DNA of 64,000 bases, taken from positions 96,001 to 160,000 of IMG/VR virus record IMGVR_UViG_3300008267_000004; one strand, given 5' to 3'. The stretch comes from a virus. A model generated the notes under the pieces. It was not told where the DNA came from and made no database searches. It was given only the letters and a program-made list of their open reading frames with translations. The first letter of the stretch is position 1. Each line of letters opens with the position of its first letter. Positions 1,412 to 15,344 of the stretch are shown piece after piece. Made by a program: the position numbers and the translations under genes.

Positions 1412-1637
1412 CTTCCACCTCCATTAATTCAAATGTATCAAGTAATGTTCTTCTGGAAATAGGAAACAATTTATCTGGCTTATCTAATTCCATGTACCGA
1501 TATTGAGTATAATCTGGTCCATTTATTGCGGTGGCAGCTGTTGCATCCTCCATAAGGATAATGTATGGAGGATACAGGATATCTAATAGATCTTGAACAT
1601 CTTTTCTTTTTTTATAGACTCTGCCAAGTTTAACCAT
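1401..1637 (-). CDS. small SH3/KOW-like array protein
   Basis: VKLGRVY, YMELDKPD. Confidence 0.75.
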   Translation of the reverse strand: MVKLGRVYKKRKDVQDLLDILYPPYIILMEDATAATAINGPDYTQYRYMELDKPDKLFPISRRTLLDTFELMEVEDGN

Positions 1638-1861
1638 TAAATGAATCCCATTACTTTTTTACAATTATCAAAAAATTCTTCTGGCATTGTTTGTTGAAAA
1701 TCGAGGTTTCTTACGTTTGCAACTTTATATCTTTTTGTTTTTACAACAAATTCTAATACAATTATGTATTCCTCAAATCCATTCATATACCAGACAGATC
1801 CTGGTTTAACCTTCATGCTCAACCCAATTTTTGTTAATAAACGCACCTTCCAGTTCATCAT
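1637..1861 (-). CDS. small SH3/KOW-like array protein
   Basis: VKPGSVW, YIIVL; true start probably at MKVKPG. Confidence 0.68.
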   Translation of the reverse strand: MMNWKVRLLTKIGLSMKVKPGSVWYMNGFEEYIIVLEFVVKTKRYKVANVRNLDFQQTMPEEFFDNCKKVMGFI

Positions 1862-7789: not shown

Positions 7790-8188
7790 CTAAAACTTGT
7801 AAGTCCCAATCATGGTTTCATCAACACTATAAACAACCTTAGAAATTCCTCGTTCCTCAAGCAAAGCATGGCACATATTGCAGGGTTTGCTCATACGCAT
7901 CGAACCATCCTTCTTAGACGCACGAACAACATACATCGTTGCACCCTTTGTTACGCTACGATCAAGGCCAAGTATGGCTGAAATCTCAGCGTGATAAGTG
8001 CTGTGTCCCTTATCACTATGCCTAAACTTAGCACCAACACTAGAATACTTCTCGTTATTAACACCCAAGCCGAGGATTGCCGAACCCTTTTCAAGAACTG
8101 CACCATGCCGAAAATTACCGTATTCGCTACTAACAGCGAGTTTTTGTGCCAACTTGGAGTAACCTCCGAATCTTCTTAGATGCATCAC
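7790..8188 (-). CDS. zinc-dependent cytidine/adenosine deaminase-superfamily protein
   Basis: HAE and PCNMC zinc motifs; RHGAV and SKVVY segments typical of the CDA fold. Confidence 0.9.
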   Translation of the reverse strand: MMHLRRFGGYSKLAQKLAVSSEYGNFRHGAVLEKGSAILGLGVNNEKYSSVGAKFRHSDKGHSTYHAEISAILGLDRSVTKGATMYVVRASKKDGSMRMSKPCNMCHALLEERGISKVVYSVDETMIGTYKF

Positions 8189-10286: not shown

Positions 10287-10318
10287 AAAAAAACCCCGCC
10301 TAACTTAATAGGCGGGGT
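10287..10318 (-). terminator. intrinsic terminator closing the tRNA/ncRNA operon
   Basis: ACCCCGCC-10 nt-GGCGGGGT hairpin followed by a U tract. Confidence 0.85.
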
Positions 10319-10552
10319 AAGTGGAAACCACACTAGAATATAATAATGTGTAGCTTATCGGGTTTTGCCATCTCTTCGCGGGCAAGTCACTAGATGCACT
10401 TCAATAACTTTCTAGGCTCTCCATGGGAACATGGAAGGGATAAATGTATGTAAAAATAAAAAGTCCCAAAACCTAGACTGGTGTTCATCAGCATCGTAAA
10501 ACACCATTTACTGTAAAATATGTCCTATCCACTTAGTTCTGAATTAAGTACA
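10319..10552 (-). ncRNA. putative structured ncRNA C (shared GCGAAGA motif)
   Basis: No ORF; AAGTGGA/TCCACTT closing helix, several hairpins, and a copy of the 40-nt motif at 10354-10393. Confidence 0.55.
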
Positions 10553-10555
10553 AAT

Positions 10556-10644
10556 TGGCGGAAAGTGTTGGATTTGAACCAACGGACCCTTTAGGGATCG
10601 ACAGTTTAGCAAACTGCTCGTTTAAGCCGCTCACGCAACTTTCC
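10556..10644 (-). tRNA. tRNA-Ser(GCT)
   Basis: Cloverleaf, long variable arm, loop TTGCTAA, CCA encoded. Confidence 0.92.
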
Positions 10645-10652
10645 ATGAAAAC

Positions 10653-10728
10653 TGGAGAGGGTAGTAAGATTCGCACTTACGATTGGGAGTTTTGCAGGCT
10701 CCTGCCTTACTCTCTTGGCTATACCCTC
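10653..10728 (-). tRNA. tRNA-Cys(GCA)
   Basis: Acceptor GAGGGTA/TACCCTC, loop CTGCAAA, U73, CCA. Confidence 0.9.
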
Positions 10729-10731
10729 ATA

Positions 10732-10820
10732 TGGAGGAAGAAGTGAGATTCGAACTCACGGACCCTTGTGGGATCTCTTGTTTTCTAGACAAGTACCATA
10801 AACCGCTCGGTCATTCTTCC
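10732..10820 (-). tRNA. tRNA-Ser(AGA)
   Basis: Perfect CTTGT/ACAAG stem, loop CTAGAAA, long variable arm, CCA. Confidence 0.85.
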
Positions 10821-10827
10821 AAAAAAT

Positions 10828-10903
10828 TGGTAGGTTCAACAGGAATTGCACCTGTACTCTCTCGATTATCAGTCGAGTGCTTTACTAATTAAGCTATGAA
10901 CCC
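10828..10903 (-). tRNA. tRNA-Ile(GAT)
   Basis: CTCGA-CTGATAA-TCGAG, CCA. Confidence 0.92.
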
Positions 10904-10904
10904 T

Positions 10905-11178
10905 CACAAAGCAAGTAGTTAACAGGGACACTTCGACTATGGTCCCCAATGGGATCGAAGAAATGTCCTTTTCGATGGGTAACTATCTTCGCTGTTACCA
11001 CACTAGAGTTATTTTTTAGCTTTTAGGCCCATTCCAGATTCTAAGTCTAGGGGAACCAAGGGGGCTTAATCACCAACCCACCTATTATCCCACGCCAGGG
11101 ATTCATCTAGCTAACTACAAAAAGTAACCCATCAGTTTGAGGATACTAAGTTTCAGCATAGCCTTGACAGGTTTTGTT
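10905..11178 (-). ncRNA. putative structured ncRNA A (shared GCGAAGA motif)
   Basis: Non-coding ~270 nt between tRNAs; GATGGGTTACT/AGTTACCCATC long-range pairing; motif copy at 10967-11006. Confidence 0.6.
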
Positions 11179-11180
11179 AT

Positions 11181-11258
11181 TGGCGAGGAGTACGGGACTT
11201 GAACCCGTGATCTCTGGCGTGACAGGCCAGTGCTTTAAACCAACTAAGCTAACTCCCC
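11181..11258 (-). tRNA. tRNA-Asp(GTC)
   Basis: CTGGC-CTGTCAC-GCCAG, CCA. Confidence 0.93.
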
Positions 11259-11269
11259 ATTAAAAGATT

Positions 11270-11354
11270 TGGTAGGGTCAGTCGGATTCGAACCGACACT
11301 CCTTGCGGAACCAGATTTTGAGTCTAGCGTGGCTACCTGTTACACCATGACCCC
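11270..11354 (-). tRNA. tRNA-Leu(CAA)
   Basis: CTAGA-CTCAAAA-TCTGG, long variable arm, CCA. Confidence 0.92.
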
Positions 11355-11362
11355 ACAAAAAG

Positions 11363-11706
11363 AACAGCATAAGGTGTGTTACTACACCAAAAGGAACCCA
11401 TACTTGCTACTTTGCATACCTCACGTTATCATCCGCTTGGCACTGTTCTGCTTGTATGCCGGGCATTCTCCTATTCCCCAACCCAGCAGGACTGATTTAT
11501 TTACAATTAAGTTAGTCGTGGTTTACCTACTTAACCCGGCTGATTACGGTTTTGAACCATCTATAGTTTATCGGGGTTTCCATAGACAATTTTCAGTACG
11601 CTTTCGCTCTGTCCACGCTGGAAAACAGCTTAACTAACACCTGCCTAGGATTTCGTCCTACTCATTATAAGATGGCTACTCTTAAGCCAACTTCCCGTAT
11701 GCTGTT
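11363..11706 (-). ncRNA. large structured ncRNA containing a 23S rRNA H43/H44 (uL11-binding) domain mimic
   Basis: 9-bp terminal helix AACAGCATA/TATGCTGTT; 5' part GGGAAGTTGGCTTAAGAGTAGCCATCTTATAATGAGT and 3' part GTGTAGTAACACACC align to 23S nt ~1054-1105 with compensatory changes. Confidence 0.8.
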
Positions 11707-11716
11707 TACAACTATT

Positions 11717-11791
11717 TGGTTCCGGTAGATGGATTCGAACCACCGTTCACAGATTCAAAGTCTGCTGTCCTGCCAGTTAGACGATACCGGA
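11717..11791 (-). tRNA. tRNA-Gln(TTG)
   Basis: GCAGA-CTTTGAA-TCTGT, CCA. Confidence 0.92.
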
Positions 11792-11796
11792 TCAAA

Positions 11797-11881
11797 TGGT
11801 GGGCAAGGTCGGAATCGAACCGACACTCCTTTCGGAACTGGCTTCTAAGACCAGCGCGGCTACCAGTTACGCCACCTGCCC
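11797..11881 (-). tRNA. tRNA-Leu(TAG)
   Basis: CTGGT-CTTAGAA-GCCAG, long variable arm, CCA. Confidence 0.92.
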
Positions 11882-11890
11882 ATACTACTA

Positions 11891-12289
11891 TTAGAAATCT
11901 ACAATCTTCTTGAATTCAGTACCCGGTTCCATAACCAAGGGTTCCTCGCGTACCTCTACCCAACCGCTGTAGTAGCCGTTTGATGAGTTACGGAATTCAA
12001 TCGTACAGTGACCCTTATCGGTCTTAACCTTGATCATGTTAACCTGGATAAGGTTATAGTTGTCCTCCCATGAATCCCCGCCAACATTCTCGTATTCAAG
12101 GAACTTGGCATTGTCAAACACCAGAGCGTTATCACAATGTTCAAACCATGAATTAGAACAACAATCACCGTAGGCGTTAAGGCTATACCACACACCATCA
12201 ACCTTCCACATCATAACGTCGCGGTTCTGGTTGATAAGCGCATCAGTAATCGTTTTGCCCACCATCGGCTCAAAATCATTATAACCCAT
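11891..12289 (-). CDS. conserved phage hypothetical protein within the tRNA cluster
   Basis: 132 aa with GDCCSNSWFE and SNGYYSGW motifs; RBS-like AGGTGT upstream. Confidence 0.8.
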   Translation of the reverse strand: MGYNDFEPMVGKTITDALINQNRDVMMWKVDGVWYSLNAYGDCCSNSWFEHCDNALVFDNAKFLEYENVGGDSWEDNYNLIQVNMIKVKTDKGHCTIEFRNSSNGYYSGWVEVREEPLVMEPGTEFKKIVDF

Positions 12290-12339
12290 AATACACCTAT
12301 ACGATTTGTGGCGGCTGGCAGGCCGCGTTAGACAAAATT

Positions 12340-12413
12340 TGGTGCTTCCACTCAGAATCGAACTGAGAACGCTGCGTTACAAAGGCAGAGTTATACCGTT
12401 TAACTATAGAAGC
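12340..12413 (-). tRNA. tRNA-Thr(TGT)
   Basis: Loop TTTGTAA; acceptor GCTTCTA/TGGAAGC; CCA. Confidence 0.88.
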
Positions 12414-12417
12414 ATGA

Positions 12418-12633
12418 TGAATCTGCAATTGAAAGATTGAATTTCAATGGGGTTTGCAAGCCCTATTCAACCCTTGTCGATGGCAAACGATCTTCGCTGT
12501 TTGCACACTAGCTGCTTTGTTTGTTAATTGCTCTGATGCCGCTTAACAGAGTTGGCAACTCCTAGTCGTCAGTTTGCATGGTGTAAGTAGCAAAACATCC
12601 ACTAAAGTTATTCATCTATCTTTTGCAGATTCA
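12418..12633 (-). ncRNA. putative structured ncRNA B (shared GCGAAGA motif)
   Basis: Perfect 11-bp terminal helix TGAATCTGCAA/TTGCAGATTCA; motif copy at 12472-12511. Confidence 0.65.
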
Positions 12634-12636
12634 AAT

Positions 12637-12711
12637 TGGTTGGAGAACTAGGATTCGAACCTAGATAGGCAGATTCAGAGTCTGCCGTCCTGCCCGTTAG
12701 ACGATTCCCCA
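12637..12711 (-). tRNA. tRNA-Gln(CTG)
   Basis: GCAGA-CTCTGAA-TCTGC, CCA. Confidence 0.92.
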
Positions 12712-12716
12712 ACAAA

Positions 12717-12793
12717 TGGCGAGGATAGTAGGAGTTGAACCTACAACTTCCAGACTCGTAATCTGGTACTCTCTCCAATTGAGTTATATCCCC
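12717..12793 (-). tRNA. tRNA-Arg(ACG)
   Basis: CCAGA-TTACGAG-TCTGG, CCA. Confidence 0.92.
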
Positions 12794-12797
12794 ATGT

Positions 12798-12871
12798 TGG
12801 CAGGTCGTGAAGGAATCGAACCCTCGTCAACTGATTTGGAGGCAGTTATGTTTCCATTACACTAACGACCC
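12798..12871 (-). tRNA. tRNA-Trp(CCA)
   Basis: Loop CTCCAAA; acceptor GGGTCGT/ACGACCT; CCA. Confidence 0.9.
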
Positions 12872-12878
12872 ACTAACC

Positions 12879-13259
12879 TTACGTTTCTGACTTTGTTTCC
12901 TCTGCTGGGGTTTCATCCTTAACATAACGCAGGGCAAGATGATTAAAGATATCTACCTTGACGTTATAACTAAGTTCAACCTCAACAATATCGCAGTTCA
13001 GATATGGATTGTGCTTCATATCAGCAAATGCACCAAAGTCAAACGTGCTAAATCTTCCATCCTGTCCACGCTTTAGAACAGCATTTCTTCCGTAATAATT
13101 ATCTTTGTATACATTGGTTAGATGTAGGTTAAGAGTCTTTAACGAATCCCACATTTTACCATGACGACCAAAACACGGCCAACTTGATCCAGATGAAAAA
13201 AGACCATCTTTACGACGACGAATCATATAGATTTTATTTTCTTCCTGCTTTTCCTTCAT
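12879..13259 (-). CDS. phage hypothetical protein within the tRNA cluster
   Basis: 126 aa, motif GLFSSGS...FGRHGKMW...LHL; RBS GAGG upstream. Confidence 0.75.
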   Translation of the reverse strand: MKEKQEENKIYMIRRRKDGLFSSGSSWPCFGRHGKMWDSLKTLNLHLTNVYKDNYYGRNAVLKRGQDGRFSTFDFGAFADMKHNPYLNCDIVEVELSYNVKVDIFNHLALRYVKDETPAEETKSET

Positions 13260-13286
13260 ATTATCCTCAAGTAGTTAGAACATATT

Positions 13287-13361
13287 TGGTGACCCTACAG
13301 GGAATTGAACCCTGATCTAGAGATTGAGAATCTCTTGTCCTAACCTTTAGACGATAGGGCC
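13287..13361 (-). tRNA. tRNA-Glu(CTC)
   Basis: AGAGA-TTCTCAA-TCTCT, CCA. Confidence 0.92.
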
Positions 13362-13365
13362 AAAT

Positions 13366-13441
13366 TGGGGTGGACAACGGGAATCGAACCCGTATAGCCG
13401 GAGTCACAGTCCAGTACTTTAACCATTTAAGATATGTCCAC
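13366..13441 (-). tRNA. tRNA-His(GTG)
   Basis: CTGGA-CTGTGAC-TCCGG, C73, CCA; the -1 position is T, not G. Confidence 0.9.
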
Positions 13442-13446
13442 ACTTT

Positions 13447-13523
13447 TGGTTGAAACGGTGGGAGTCGAACCCACAATAATCTGCGTATGAGACAGATGCT
13501 TTAACCTGTTAAGCTACGTTTCA
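13447..13523 (-). tRNA. tRNA-Met or Ile2 (CAT)
   Basis: TCTGT-CTCATAC-GCAGA; paired T1-A72 and no GGG/CCC anticodon stem, so not an initiator. Confidence 0.85.
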
Positions 13524-13530
13524 ACGATCT

Positions 13531-13605
13531 TGGTCGGAACAACAGGATTTGAACCTGTAACATTCTGCGTGTAAAGCAGACGCTCTACCATTGAGCTATG
13601 TTCCG
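13531..13605 (-). tRNA. tRNA-Val(TAC)
   Basis: TCTGC-TTTACAC-GCAGA, CCA. Confidence 0.92.
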
Positions 13606-13617
13606 ATAAAACAAAAT

Positions 13618-13694
13618 TGGTCGGGGTAGCAGGATTCGAACCTGCGACCTCTTGATCCCAAATCAAGCGCACTACCAAGCTGTGCTATACCCCG
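13618..13694 (-). tRNA. tRNA-Pro(TGG)
   Basis: CTTGA-TTTGGGA-TCAAG, C1-G72, CCA. Confidence 0.93.
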
Positions 13695-13698
13695 GTTA

Positions 13699-13785
13699 TG
13701 GTGGGAGATGAAGGAGTCGCGCCTACGGAGTCCCATGGACGATAGATTTACAGTCTACCCCGTCCCTCTAACGGTATAACCTCCC
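13699..13785 (-). tRNA. tRNA-Tyr(GTA), atypical D/T loops
   Basis: GTAGA-CTGTAAA-TCTAT, long variable arm, T loop CGCGACT, CCA. Confidence 0.82.
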
Positions 13786-13810
13786 ATTTCTAATTATCTT
13801 AACAGTCTCC

Positions 13811-13845
13811 AAAAAAAGTCCAGCTTTTTCGCCAAGAAGCTGGAA
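13811..13845 (-). terminator. terminator-like hairpin inside the tRNA cluster
   Basis: CCAGCTTCTT-GGCG-AAAAAGCTGG followed by ACTTTTTTT. Confidence 0.6.
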
Positions 13846-14124
13846 ACTTGTTCGATGCTGGCTGATTTATAGCTTTCGCTATACGAGAACCACTCGCTTT
13901 CTTAATGTTAGTGGAACCTTTTTGCTCCATCGCAAGCATTGGCAGTTCCAAGCCAAAATCTTTTTTCTGTGAGTTGATTGCCCGAAAGGAAACACAGATG
14001 GTAGATTAGACCGAAAAAGAAAGACGAGTCAGTACCGCTTAATTGCAGTTAAGCTTCCTTCGCTTCTGCAAGAACCGCACATAAGATTCCCGCTCATATT
14101 GGGGAATCTTATGTGCGCTCGTCT
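13811..14124 (-). ncRNA. putative structured ncRNA D
   Basis: No ORF; perfect 15-bp hairpin 14077-14116, AGACGAG/CTCGTCT helix, TATAGC-GAAA-GCTATA hairpin, TGGAAC/GTTCCA helix. Confidence 0.55.
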
Positions 14125-14126
14125 AA

Positions 14127-14202
14127 TGGTGAATCGGGAGGGAATCGAACCCTCAACAAACTGGTTAAGAGCCAGTTACTCTACCAATTGAGTTACCGAT
14201 TC
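14127..14202 (-). tRNA. tRNA-Lys(CTT)
   Basis: ACTGG-CTCTTAA-CCAGT, CCA. Confidence 0.92.
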
Positions 14203-14207
14203 ATATT

Positions 14208-14283
14208 TGGTGCTGCCCCTTGGAATCGAACCAAGTTCAAAGGCTCTTCAGACCTCCGCTATGACCACATCAGCTAAAGCAGC
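14208..14283 (-). tRNA. tRNA-Phe(GAA)
   Basis: GAGGT-CTGAAGA-GCCTT, CCA. Confidence 0.9.
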
Positions 14284-14288
14284 ATAAT

Positions 14289-14363
14289 TGGTGACCCTAA
14301 GCGGATTTGAACCGCTGTAACAGCCTTGAAAGGGCTGTGTCCTAACCGTTAGACGATAGGGCC
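14289..14363 (-). tRNA. tRNA-Glu(TTC)
   Basis: CAGCC-CTTTCAA-GGCTG, CCA. Confidence 0.93.
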
Positions 14364-14428
14364 ATGAAAGATGACCCCTGCGTACCCGAATAGTCTACAG
14401 ACTAAACGGGCAGAGGCAAGGGCCGTTA

Positions 14429-14505
14429 TGGTAGGAAATGTGAGATTCGAACTCACGACCAATCGCTTAAAAGGCGAGTGCTCTAACCGACTGAGCTAAT
14501 TTCCC
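14429..14505 (-). tRNA. tRNA-Lys(TTT)
   Basis: Loop CTTTTAA, CCA. Confidence 0.92.
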
Positions 14506-14511
14506 ATGAAT

Positions 14512-14587
14512 TGGCTGATCCGGTAGGATTCGAACCTACGGTAGGCGAGTTAACAGCTCGCTGCCTTACCTGCTTGGCTACGGATCA
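14512..14587 (-). tRNA. tRNA-Asn(GTT)
   Basis: GCGAG-CTGTTAA-CTCGC, G73, CCA. Confidence 0.92.
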
Positions 14588-14778
14588 ACATATTCTTTTA
14601 GTACAGATTCTGTTAGGGTTATAGTAACTTCGTTACCATTTCGTCTATGCTTACCGACTACATAATAAACTCCGCTATTACTACCATACCACAAATTTGG
14701 TCCAACGATTCGCATTGGCTGAATAATCTCTTCTGAGAAGATACAAGTTACAAGATCACCCGGCTTAAAACGATTCAT
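14578..14778 (-). CDS. small SH3/KOW-like protein within the tRNA cluster
   Basis: FKPGDLV motif and C-terminal ESVLKEY; RBS GGAGAG; its stop codon lies within the 5' end of tRNA-Asn. Confidence 0.7.
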   Translation of the reverse strand: MNRFKPGDLVTCIFSEEIIQPMRIVGPNLWYGSNSGVYYVVGKHRRNGNEVTITLTESVLKEYVDP

Positions 14779-14793
14779 TGAACTCTCCTAAAT

Positions 14794-14870
14794 TGGCGAT
14801 CCCGGCAGGAGTCGAACCTGCAACCTAGTGGGTAGAAGCCACTTGCTCTATCCAATTGAGCTACGGAACC
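14794..14870 (-). tRNA. tRNA-Arg(TCT)
   Basis: AGTGG-CTTCTAC-CCACT, CCA. Confidence 0.92.
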
Positions 14871-14877
14871 ATTAAAT

Positions 14878-14963
14878 TGGTAGGTGTGGACGGACTCGAA
14901 CCGTCAAGCCTGTTAAGGCAACAGATTTTAAGTCTGTCGTGTATACCATTCCACCACACACCC
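14878..14963 (-). tRNA. tRNA-Leu(TAA)
   Basis: ACAGA-CTTAAAA-TCTGT, long variable arm, CCA. Confidence 0.93.
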
Positions 14964-15138: not shown

Positions 15139-15221
15139 ATAACTTACATTAATTACTATATCATACTTAATTCAGTTGTTAAAGAGCAAAGTTTTTTTCT
15201 TTCTCACTTAATTACCTGCCC

Positions 15222-15250
15222 ATTATAGCACAAGCAAAAGTGCCGGTCAA
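15222..15250 (-). promoter_or_regulatory. sigma70-like promoter, proximal to the tRNA operon
   Basis: TTGACC-17-TATAAT with TG; TACTCTAT box at 15270-15277. Confidence 0.85.
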
Positions 15251-15314
15251 GAAGAAAAAAACAGCAGCGATAGAGTAAAAATTTCATTCATAACGCTGCA
15301 CAACCGCCCGGTAG

Positions 15315-15344
15315 ATTATACCACAAGTCGGCGGGCGGAGTCAA
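15315..15344 (-). promoter_or_regulatory. sigma70-like promoter
   Basis: TTGACT-18-TATAAT with TG. Confidence 0.75.

Follow-up and report, generated by a model that had tools for sequence, protein, structure and literature searches.

Two small stable RNAs whose roles are unknown, rnaC and rnaD, are encoded at the distal end of the tRNA cluster of bacteriophage T4 (PMC3014915). Located on the tRNA strand, rnaC (species 1) and rnaD (species 2) have lengths of 119-139 nt and lie 1-6 nt from the last tRNA. Y RNAs of the YrlA type, which occur with Ro60/Rsr and some of which are phage-encoded, combine a conserved protein-binding handle with a variable, partly tRNA-like module. Theta ribozymes, small structured RNAs linked to the maturation of tRNAs, lie within phage tRNA arrays (PMC10879173), and the phage-associated structured RNAs GOLLD and ROOL, which have no known partner, are likewise cited alongside tRNA arrays (PMC12286853).

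The window analyzed here, a stretch of 64,000 nt from a 187-kb viral genome, contains a tRNA operon with three structured elements, A, B and C, each of which carries one copy of a 40-nt motif (Table 1). Between the candidate promoters and the predicted terminator, we found only weak (9/12) minus-strand promoter-like matches and one short terminator-like hairpin, the latter inside tRNA-Ser(AGA), and all motif copies lie in this interval on the tRNA strand. The co-transcription with the tRNAs that had been proposed in the preliminary description is consistent with the strand, the promoter-like sites and the terminator. The sequencing runs listed for the stretch are all DNA, and we infer transcription, as well as processing and stability. 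The only RNA run on that list, a metatranscriptome belonging to the study that also includes X2, contains almost none of the sequence words of the stretch. The contigs obtained from four of the DNA runs were mostly identical, together with joints showing a mosaic tRNA array, and yielded neither usable new variants nor evidence on RNA ends. No TROVE (Ro60), L7Ae or RtcB gene was found in the phage as a potential partner gene, and the ORFs in and beside the operon (a DUF7448 protein, unknowns and a possible zinc ribbon) were not informative on a partner. A neighbouring spacer, D, resembles the uL11 site of 23S rRNA and matches positions 1055-1088 of that RNA at 27 of 34 nucleotides.

Table 1. 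Features of the tRNA operon and its structured RNA elements in the analyzed window.
Feature	Position	Strand	Description
Candidate promoters (three)	15155..15344	-	sigma-70-like with extended -10, upstream of the first tRNA; consensus matches only
Array of 24 tRNA genes	10556..14963	-	elements A and B embedded; element C follows the array
Element B	12418..12633	-	about 216 nt; 10-bp closing helix GAAUCUGCAA/UUGCAGAUUC
Motif copy B	12472..12511	-	frame as in copy A; stem GCAAAC/GUUUGC
Element A	10915..11118	-	about 204 nt; 9-bp closing helix GUAGUUAGC/GUUAACUAC
Motif copy A	10967..11006	-	CUAGUG, U, 6-bp stem GGUAAC/GUUACC, closing A-U, 7-nt loop GCGAAGA; a 1-nt 3' bulge and CAUCGAAAAGG follow
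Element C	10318..10535	-	about 218 nt; closing helix UAAGUGGA/UCCACUUA; final RNA of the operon
Motif copy C	10354..10393	-	frame as in copy A; stem UUGCC/GGCAA, closing C-G pair, 2-nt bulge
Predicted intrinsic terminator	10293..10318	-	10-bp GC-rich stem and 7-T run; directly 3' of element C

The coordinates and sequences originally given for the three motif copies proved to be exact. Copies A and B differ at 6 of the 40 positions; four of these differences are two pair swaps in the stem (G-C to C-G and U-A to A-U), and the remaining two affect the base in the bulge and the n of CGAnAAG. Copy C retains CTAGTG, GCGAAGA and CGAnAAG around a stem that is unrelated to those of A and B. The pattern CTAGTG-N8-GCGAAGA has three exact matches in the window, compared with 0.00 in 100 dinucleotide shuffles, and no fourth exact copy was found anywhere in the 187-kb genome. 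The observation of the motif is correct, and its recurrence is far above chance. With model R1, copies A, B and C scored 64.4, 68.4 and 59.2 bits, respectively. Copy A is 100% conserved in the relative L012, copy B is identical in L028 and L038, and the C.A mismatch at the base of the stem in copy C becomes a U-A pair in the L076 variant. A second CTAGTGTGG in element C (at about position 10336) was considered coincidental, as it is not conserved in L076.

Related metagenome contigs brought the collection to eight sequence types, namely A, B and C of the window, a second C variant (in L076), E (in L028), F (in L074), F2 (in L077) and G (in L069). Model R1 scored F2 at 25.8 bits (E=0.0022), F at 22.4 bits (E=0.025-0.042) and G at 18.7 bits (E=0.13-0.22), and all three are located on the strand of the tRNAs and genes, either within a tRNA array or at its end. 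The tRNA arrays are mosaic, and the elements are acquired and lost in them as cassettes; in L041, for example, element B is absent and tRNA-Gln is adjacent to tRNA-Thr. This patchy presence among relatives indicates that the RNAs are dispensable. Searches of GenBank phages by DNA, for near as well as distant matches, and by a neighbour protein returned only tRNA matches or nothing. Exact-pattern scans of IMG/VR gave no further copy, and a loose scan gave 91 matches, none of them real according to model R1, the best (L129) being coding sequence. Only L012 and L028 were real among the 31 matches of a metagenome scan, and the hairpin was present in none of the 26 matches of a scan of bacterial and archaeal genomes. 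Relatives found via DnaE and ORF132 (L005 and L006) were without tRNAs and without the motif, and a profile of ORF126 homologues had no match in IMG/VR.

The alignment of the eight types, which was made by hand, suggests a common architecture for whole elements of 140-220 nt. Each RNA would form a multi-helix junction, in which a closing helix P1, with its own sequence in each member, is followed by UAG, the variable domain P2, a linker rich in A with CUAGU at its end, the motif hairpin P3, CGAnAA, a second hairpin P4 and the 3' strand of P1. P3 consists of 6 bp, a 3' bulge of 0-2 nt, one closing pair and a 7-nt loop, RYNAAGA. In the hand-registered P3 table of the eight types, 53 of the 56 cells are Watson-Crick pairs, two are G-U pairs and one is unpaired; the stem sequence differs in every type, with 3-4 pair types at each of the seven pairs. 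Covariation in the homologues was also strong by other means: all seven pairs were altered on both sides in the model-fitted alignment, the covariation value was 0.837 compared with 0.214 for shuffled alignments (none of 500 shuffles was as high) and 0.07-0.40 for slid controls, and RNAalifold recovered the same P3 stem from an independent MAFFT alignment.

Compensatory changes extend beyond P3. The comparison of element A with L012 shows UCGGC/GCCGA substituted for a stem UCCC/GGGA and, in the 3' hairpin, one U-A to C-G swap and three wobble-compatible changes. A helix of element B carries an A-U to C-G change in relatives. Between element C and L076, a P1 pair changes from U-A to A-U, an internal stem pair from A-U to U-A, and a P4 pair from U.G to U-A. 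The P3 stems of A, B, C and E are purely Watson-Crick and, taken alone, strand-neutral. G-U pairs are present, however, in P3 (F and F2) and in P4 (A and C); they would be A.C mismatches on the opposite strand, so that the helix changes fit the tRNA strand only. At the level of comparative analysis, these substitutions show the hairpin and the closing helices to be under selection as RNA on the tRNA strand, and the predicted fold of the element is well supported. By the same comparison, the three window spacers and the five variants in relatives are one undescribed family. The core of the preliminary reading, a paralogous family of structured RNAs within the tRNA transcription unit, thus gains support.

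The junction nucleotides UAG, CUAGU and CGAnAA are conserved and do not covary; the variants observed are CAA in place of CGA in L076 and CUAAC in place of CUAGU in G. The upstream CTAG reported earlier for each element is present in the three window copies, but its proposed pairing with the CTAG of the motif is not conserved in relatives: the upstream CTAG of element B is lost in L028 and is located elsewhere in L038, and member E has none. CTAG is as frequent as expected from base composition (genome, 568 observed and 571 expected; operon, 3.1 per kb). Conserved instead is the UAG directly after the closing helix, which never varies and could pair with the CUA of the motif. Three further candidate interactions were rejected, namely a pairing of GAUGAA with the 3' flank, which only A and B have, a non-conserved pseudoknot in which the P3 loop would pair with a UCUU segment, and an extension of P3 (G4.U32, U5-A31, G6-C30), which is possible in A and B only.

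The individual elements differ in their surroundings and variable parts. Element A (fold z = -2.06, calculated for its entire spacer) includes, besides a variable domain, the motif hairpin and a hairpin on the 3' side. Element B (z = -2.85) begins 3 nt past tRNA-Gln and stops 4 nt short of tRNA-Thr, gaps like those of a tRNA in the array; in L028 and L038 its 5' domain covaries, with no change in the 3' 120 nt. Element C has a fold z of -3.89. One hairpin of element A combines the anticodon stem of the phage tRNA-Leu(CAA) with the loop of the phage tRNA-Leu(UAG), and one loop of element B is identical to the anticodon loop of tRNA-Gly(GCC). Across the family, five such anticodon-arm look-alikes were observed and 2.4 expected, an enrichment that is not significant (28 of 300 shuffles were as high).

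No family of Rfam 15 was assigned to the elements. At the gathering score the 24 tRNAs passed and nothing else did, and at E<=10 the elements gave only noise at E>1, mostly on the terminator (PyrR, GcvB, ncr1575). Known loop motifs were considered as well. The loop GCGAAGA corresponds to the C-GAA-GA bulged strand of Haloarcula marismortui Kt-7, and GAAGA to the pentaloop of the lambda nutL boxB. In Kt-7, however, the strand lies between two helices and faces a GA strand; here the sequence forms the 7-nt loop of a hairpin, has a covarying closing pair and varies as RYNAAGA, and the phage has no L7Ae-family gene, so that a kink-turn was rejected. The closing pair of boxB is impossible in A and B, where C is opposite U, and a boxB reading was rejected as well. 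These two resemblances are leads only. A bulged-G motif (sarcin-ricin/loop E, S-turn) was also rejected: its AGUA calls for a conserved A in fourth place, where the members have G, U, A or C, the base after GA varies, and the outer side has no flanking helix.

Compared with the systems described above, T4 rnaC and rnaD are the closest analogues. They resemble elements B and C in kind and in genomic logic, a likeness confined to the genomic context. Model R1, run with filters off, had no match in T4 70908-71171, and homology was rejected. Neither sequence nor structure matches, the present family has several paralogs per operon with one core, and the 3' end of T4 rnaC can be read as a T-arm-like GGGUUCGAAUCCC hairpin, which the present family lacks. 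Theta ribozymes are about 50 nt long, and the elements are 3-4 times longer, mostly do not lie at a tRNA 3' end and have no HDV-family match in Rfam. The modular plan of the YrlA-type Y RNAs is shared, in that a handle and a variable module are proposed here too, but the YrlA model matches only true tRNAs here, the phage has no TROVE/Ro60 gene, and nothing in the elements mimics a T-arm or a D-arm. GOLLD and ROOL exceed the present elements in size by a factor of roughly 3-4 and have no Rfam match to them.

The explanation that we favor, held as a whole with slightly more confidence than doubt, is that the 40-nt motif is the invariant core of structured non-coding RNAs of 140-220 nt, which are optional cassettes of the tRNA operon, and that the family is restricted to the lineage of this uncultured freshwater phage and its relatives. 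Our best guess for their function is a stable RNA that would be released by tRNA processing and in which the motif would serve as a docking handle. The RNAs would be transcribed within the tRNA precursor; cleavage at the neighboring tRNAs by RNase P and the enzymes that process tRNA 3' ends would release the elements; and P1 would then shield the ends, allowing the elements to accumulate as stable small RNAs. Most speculatively, the conserved junction strands and the P3 loop may together offer a shared docking handle to a protein or RNA partner, and P2 may be a member-specific cargo. The cargo of A and B would include the anticodon-arm look-alike, which would be in keeping with a role as decoy or sponge.

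A more far-reaching reading, which we regard as rather improbable, is that the junction (UAG, CUAGU, CGAnAA) and the RYNAAGA loop form the core of a new RNA class, either a self-cleaving or self-processing ribozyme or a decoy-presenting handle. The ribozyme would help to dismantle the tRNA precursor. The handle would present member-specific baits, the tRNA-Leu(UAG) look-alike in A and the tRNA-Gly(GCC) look-alike in B, to host defense nucleases that target tRNAs, and the tRNA operon of the phage would then launch RNA decoys besides spare tRNAs.

Taken by itself, a new catalytic RNA, whose junction strands and loop would constitute an active site, cleaving the precursor and assisting in the release of the flanking tRNAs, also seems rather unlikely. 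Conservation in the joining strands with variable peripheral helices is typical of small ribozymes, theta ribozymes that mature phage tRNAs are known (PMC10879173), and element B abuts the 3' end of tRNA-Gln. It is, however, the only element that abuts a tRNA 3' end; A, C and G sit 20-170 nt from the upstream tRNA; host enzymes can process the flanking tRNAs unaided; and the natural variant L076 alters the conserved CGA. No Rfam ribozyme family matched at E<=10. A hammerhead was rejected, its core being absent (CUAGUG stands in place of CUGAUGA, and GAnAA is variable at its third base), and no HDV-type Rfam match was obtained for an HDV-like or theta ribozyme, although minimal variants can escape these models.

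It is unlikely that the elements are degenerate tRNA-derived or tRNA-like units that act as punctuation for the host tRNA-processing enzymes and have no function of their own. The order of the helices is cloverleaf-like (a 7-bp closing helix, UA, arms), element B occupies a tRNA-like slot, and A and B carry the tRNA-Leu and tRNA-Gly(GCC) anticodon-arm look-alikes. Nevertheless, ARAGORN and the Rfam tRNA and tRNA-like models (RF00005, YrlA RF02553, tmRNA) were all negative in the elements, which have no T-arm or T-loop and no encoded CCA after P1. Local alignment of the eight types with the 24 tRNAs gave scores not above those of shuffles, and descent from tRNAs was rejected. Moreover, punctuation needs no invariant non-tRNA loop and junction across paralogs with fully diverged stems.

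A mimic of an RNA of the translation machinery, such as 5S helix IV/loop E, that would sequester a ribosomal protein or factor is very unlikely. By eye, UAGUGUGG and CCCAU..CGA..AGG can be recognized both in A and B and in the 3' domain of E. coli 5S rRNA, and the 23S match of spacer D could be counted on the same side. The shared bases, however, are missing from C, E, F and G, alignment scores with 5S rRNA were 13-17 against shuffled maxima of 18-26, and RF00001 did not match; 5S rRNA was accordingly rejected. Local alignments of A, B, C and E with E. coli 5S, 16S and 23S rRNA were not above shuffles, except for one match between B and 23S rRNA (1 of 300 shuffles as high), which lies within the covarying stem and is therefore not a feature of the family.

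We attach similarly little probability to an element acting at the DNA level, in which the hairpin would form the end of a small mobile cassette, serve as a site of recombination or homing, or act as a signal in single-stranded DNA. Such an element would be in line with the gain and loss of cassettes and with the purely Watson-Crick P3 of A, B, C and E, and mini-hairpins of the GCGAAG type are very stable in DNA. Against it, the G-U pairs are tolerated on the tRNA strand only, every copy is oriented as the tRNAs, whole units are closed by a covarying helix, and neither terminal inverted repeats nor target duplications, transposase genes or endonuclease genes were found near the elements. Short peptide genes through the motif are scarcely credible: one frame is open across the motif in all copies, with GTG-started minus-strand ORFs at 10894-11001 (A, 35 codons) and 12444-12506 (B, 20 codons), but there is no Shine-Dalgarno sequence, the ORF of A enters tRNA-Ile, frame and length vary by member, and the copies differ by non-synonymous changes that are complementary in pairs, a pattern not expected of coding sequence.

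The tRNA clusters of phages are generally interpreted as a supply of tRNAs for codon usage or anti-defense. The present operon also carries several non-tRNA structured RNAs, one family of which now has clear comparative support. This family joins the few unexplained phage RNAs (T4 rnaC and rnaD, GOLLD, ROOL and Y-like RNAs) as a well-defined example, with full covariation and clear boundaries, and its compact 40-nt core is suited to mutation, probing and use as bait. If the reading as a docking handle with a member-specific cargo is wrong, this would still be a new Rfam-grade family from freshwater phages; if it is true, RNA decoys would take part in the contest between phage and host over tRNAs.

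A 40-nt motif had been reported once in each of three spacer elements (A, B and C) of the minus-strand tRNA operon of the window, and checking of the minus-strand sequence recovered the three copies exactly as described. Copies A and B are identical at 34 of 40 positions, four of the six differences being two pair swaps in the stem, and copy C retains CTAGTG, GCGAAGA and CGAnAAG around a stem unrelated to that of A and B. Three matches to the pattern CTAGTG-N8-GCGAAGA lie in the window, as against none in 100 shuffles; no further exact copy of it was found in the rest of the genome. The suggested Rfam search returned only tRNAs at the gathering score, and the elements had no credible match at E<=10. 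The preliminary description also put forward a pairing between the CTAG of the motif and a second CTAG upstream of it; this turned out not to be general, as the upstream CTAG of B is moved or lost in the related contigs L028 and L038 and is absent in element E, a further member of the family. CTAG is neither depleted genome-wide nor enriched in the operon. The only candidate partner with which the motif CUA could pair is an invariant UAG 3' of the closing helix, whose invariance leaves no covariation signal.

Related phage contigs were recovered by pattern scans and by look-ups via two small neighbouring proteins, ORF126 and ORF113. L012 and L028 share ~93% DNA identity with the window; L038 was located through its ORF126 homologue (80% identity), and L076, L074, L077 and L069 through ORF113 homologues (91, 85, 83 and 65% identity, respectively). 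Orthologues of A were identified in L012, of B in L028 and L038, and of C in L076. A covariance model, the construction of which had been proposed, was built from A, B, C and E, and the search detected the new members F, F2 and G (22.4, 25.8 and 18.7 bits; E 0.002 to 0.2), all on the tRNA strand and within or adjoining tRNA arrays. Pattern scans of IMG/VR, of GenBank phages and of 185,579 bacterial and archaeal species genomes did not detect the family. At internal joins, L012 (OGVZ01005493.1) and L028 (OGVZ01009111.1) carry copies of the random-amplification primer GTTTCCCAGTCACGATA; one join leads to a 16S rRNA fragment, and the ends of these contigs are therefore chimeric. Element E, in its 3' part, matches this primer partially, over 10 nt.

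Positions of the family members, operon features and neighbouring sequences (window numbering unless a contig is named)
Feature	Position	Strand	Remarks
Promoters	15344-15155	minus	three, sigma-70-like, extended -10; upstream of tRNA array
24 tRNA genes	14963 to 10556	minus	ARAGORN, Rfam
432-nt spacer	13695-14126	minus	separates tRNA-Pro from tRNA-Lys(CTT)
Element B	12633-12418	minus	10-bp closing helix; motif 12511-12472
Spacer D	11355-11716	minus	between tRNA-Leu(CAA) and tRNA-Gln(TTG)
Small separate hairpin	11126-11174	minus	between tRNA-Asp and element A; nearly invariant in L012
Element A	11118-10915	minus	9-bp closing helix; motif 11006-10967
tRNA-Ser	10732-10820	minus	anticodon AGA (A34); kept in L012 and L076
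Element C	10535-10318	minus	8-bp closing helix; motif 10393-10354
Terminator	10318-10293	minus	strong, intrinsic; downstream of array
Deaminase-family gene	7790-8188		cytidine or dCMP deaminase
E	L028		downstream of tRNA-Thr and a tRNA-His
F, F2	L074, L077		immediately upstream of ORF113 homologue
G	L069		between tRNA-Arg and tRNA-Asn
H	L069		truncated C-like copy, immediately before G

The idea of a structured, paralogous RNA family was borne out by the motif hairpin, which covaries across eight types (A, B, C, the C variant of L076, E, F, F2 and G), with all seven pairs changed on both sides. When the bulge was registered by hand, the 56 hairpin cells comprised 53 Watson-Crick pairs, 2 G-U pairs and 1 unpaired cell; three or four pair types occur at each of the seven positions, and the loop-closing pair covaries too (A-U, C-G, U-A). 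The model-fitted alignment has both C rows one column out of register, and the covariation holds regardless (7/7 pairs altered on both sides). The covariation score of the hairpin was 0.837 versus 0.214 when shuffled, with none of 500 shuffles as high, and it fell to 0.07-0.40 when the partner was slid by 1-3 columns. From a plain MAFFT alignment, RNAalifold gave the same stem. A, B, C and E share the loop GCGAAGA, which reads GUGAAGA in H, GUAAAGA in G, ACAAAGA in F and ACUAAGA in F2, giving the consensus RYNAAGA.

Every motif lies within a unit that a helix specific to that member closes. The closing helices of E, F, F2 and G are each of 7 bp and unrelated in sequence. The closing helix leads into UAG, mostly as GAUAGR, and then into a variable domain. 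An A-rich linker, with CUAGU (CUAAC in G) at its end, comes next and precedes the motif hairpin, beyond which lie YC-GAnAA, another hairpin and the return strand of the closing helix. The A, B and C spacers fold better than shuffled sequences (z = -2.1, -2.9 and -3.9, respectively). Moreover, substitutions between orthologues preserve the predicted flanking helices. Between A and its L012 orthologue one hairpin is swapped (stem UCCC/GGGA to UCGGC/GCCGA), and the 3' hairpin carries one U-A to C-G swap and three wobble-compatible changes. The B orthologues show A-U to C-G in an internal stem, their 3' 120 nt being invariant. Between C and its L076 counterpart, a U-A pair of the closing helix becomes A-U and an A-U pair of an internal stem becomes U-A; in the 3' hairpin, U.G is replaced by U-A and C-G by U.G. 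The G-U pairs are compatible with the tRNA strand only, and therefore indicate RNA-level selection on that strand. As judged from the alignments, both the hairpin-plus-junction core and the member-specific closing helices are kept by this selection.

The phage record, rated complete in IMG/VR, is 187,450 bp long (the window being bases 96001-160000) and encodes a DnaE-type polymerase, a GroEL-like chaperonin and a DnaB helicase. No close relative was found among GenBank phages, and the public runs containing the stretch are mostly freshwater and lake metagenomes. The plus strand of the whole genome is strongly asymmetric (G 14.5%, C 19.6%, T 36.5%, A 29.4%), and two more tRNA genes, at 74033-74736 of the genome, lie far outside the array. 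The promoter-like site of the next gene comes after the terminator, and these predicted signals put the elements within one unit that runs from promoter-like sites to a terminator.

The tRNA arrays of relatives are mosaic. In the contig L041, tRNA-Gln and tRNA-Thr are 7 nt apart and element B is absent; in L028, tRNA-His and element E stand in place of a window protein gene; and contigs in four runs contain additional joints, one of which reuses the 5' half of the A/B motif beside a different tRNA. The elements are therefore optional modules. L041, a more distant relative, has between tRNA-Trp and tRNA-Gln a 157-nt structured-looking spacer (1558-1714, plus strand), closed by GGUG/CACC and outside the A/B/C family, where the window has tRNA-Arg(ACG). 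At the site of the 432-nt spacer, L041 and L042 have a tRNA-Tyr(GTA); no tRNA-Tyr is called in the window by ARAGORN or Rfam. In spacer D, well conserved in L012, a 34-nt stretch agrees at 27 of 34 positions with the helix 43 region (1055-1088) of E. coli 23S rRNA, in the uL11/GTPase-associated centre (local score 33 versus a shuffled maximum of 28).

Several identities were considered for the elements and rejected. Peptide coding is contradicted by the complementary, not synonymous, differences between copies, and the short reading frames that cross the motif have no ribosome-binding sites. Hammerhead, kink-turn, boxB and bulged-G motifs were each ruled out across all eight types. Speaking against descent from tRNA, the elements show no similarity to the tRNAs of the phage itself and have neither a T-arm nor a CCA. 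As to rRNA mimicry, comparison of A, B, C and E with E. coli 5S, 16S and 23S rRNA gave no significant similarity, and a likeness between helix IV of 5S rRNA and copies A and B, noted by eye, is not shared across the family. The small stable RNAs of the T4 tRNA operon, rnaC and rnaD, have reportedly been known for long. These RNAs of a phage tRNA operon (PMC3014915) are placed at the end of the T4 tRNA cluster, an arrangement comparable to that of the present elements; homology was rejected, as they do not match the covariance model.

In element A, a hairpin at 11034-11050 (minus strand) has the 5-bp anticodon stem of the phage tRNA-Leu(CAA) and the 7-nt loop of its tRNA-Leu(UAG); in L012 the loop is kept and one stem pair changes from U.G to C-G. 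A hairpin of element B (~12543-12558, minus strand) has the loop UUGCCAA, the anticodon loop of tRNA-Gly(GCC); L028 and L038 keep this loop unchanged on an altered stem. Both look-alikes of an anticodon arm fall in the variable domains. No tRNA-Gly gene was called in the array by ARAGORN or Rfam, and anticodon-arm-like hairpins are not significantly enriched over the whole family.

We propose that the RNAs would be made as part of the tRNA precursor and released when RNase P and 3'-end enzymes cut the neighbouring tRNAs, after which the closing helix may stabilise them, as for T4 rnaC and rnaD (PMC3014915). More speculatively, the invariant loop and junction strands might be a handle for a common partner, with the variable domain as cargo; no genes for the candidate partners Ro60, L7Ae or RtcB were found in the phage. 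A catalytic role is possible by analogy with the theta ribozymes (PMC10879173). The family is narrowly distributed and dispensable, and its product and function are putative. It has no entry in Rfam and was not found described in the literature searched; it is genuine, has clear limits and lends itself to experiments. A small stable RNA in a phage tRNA operon is a known kind of object, to which this family would belong; the family itself appears to be new.
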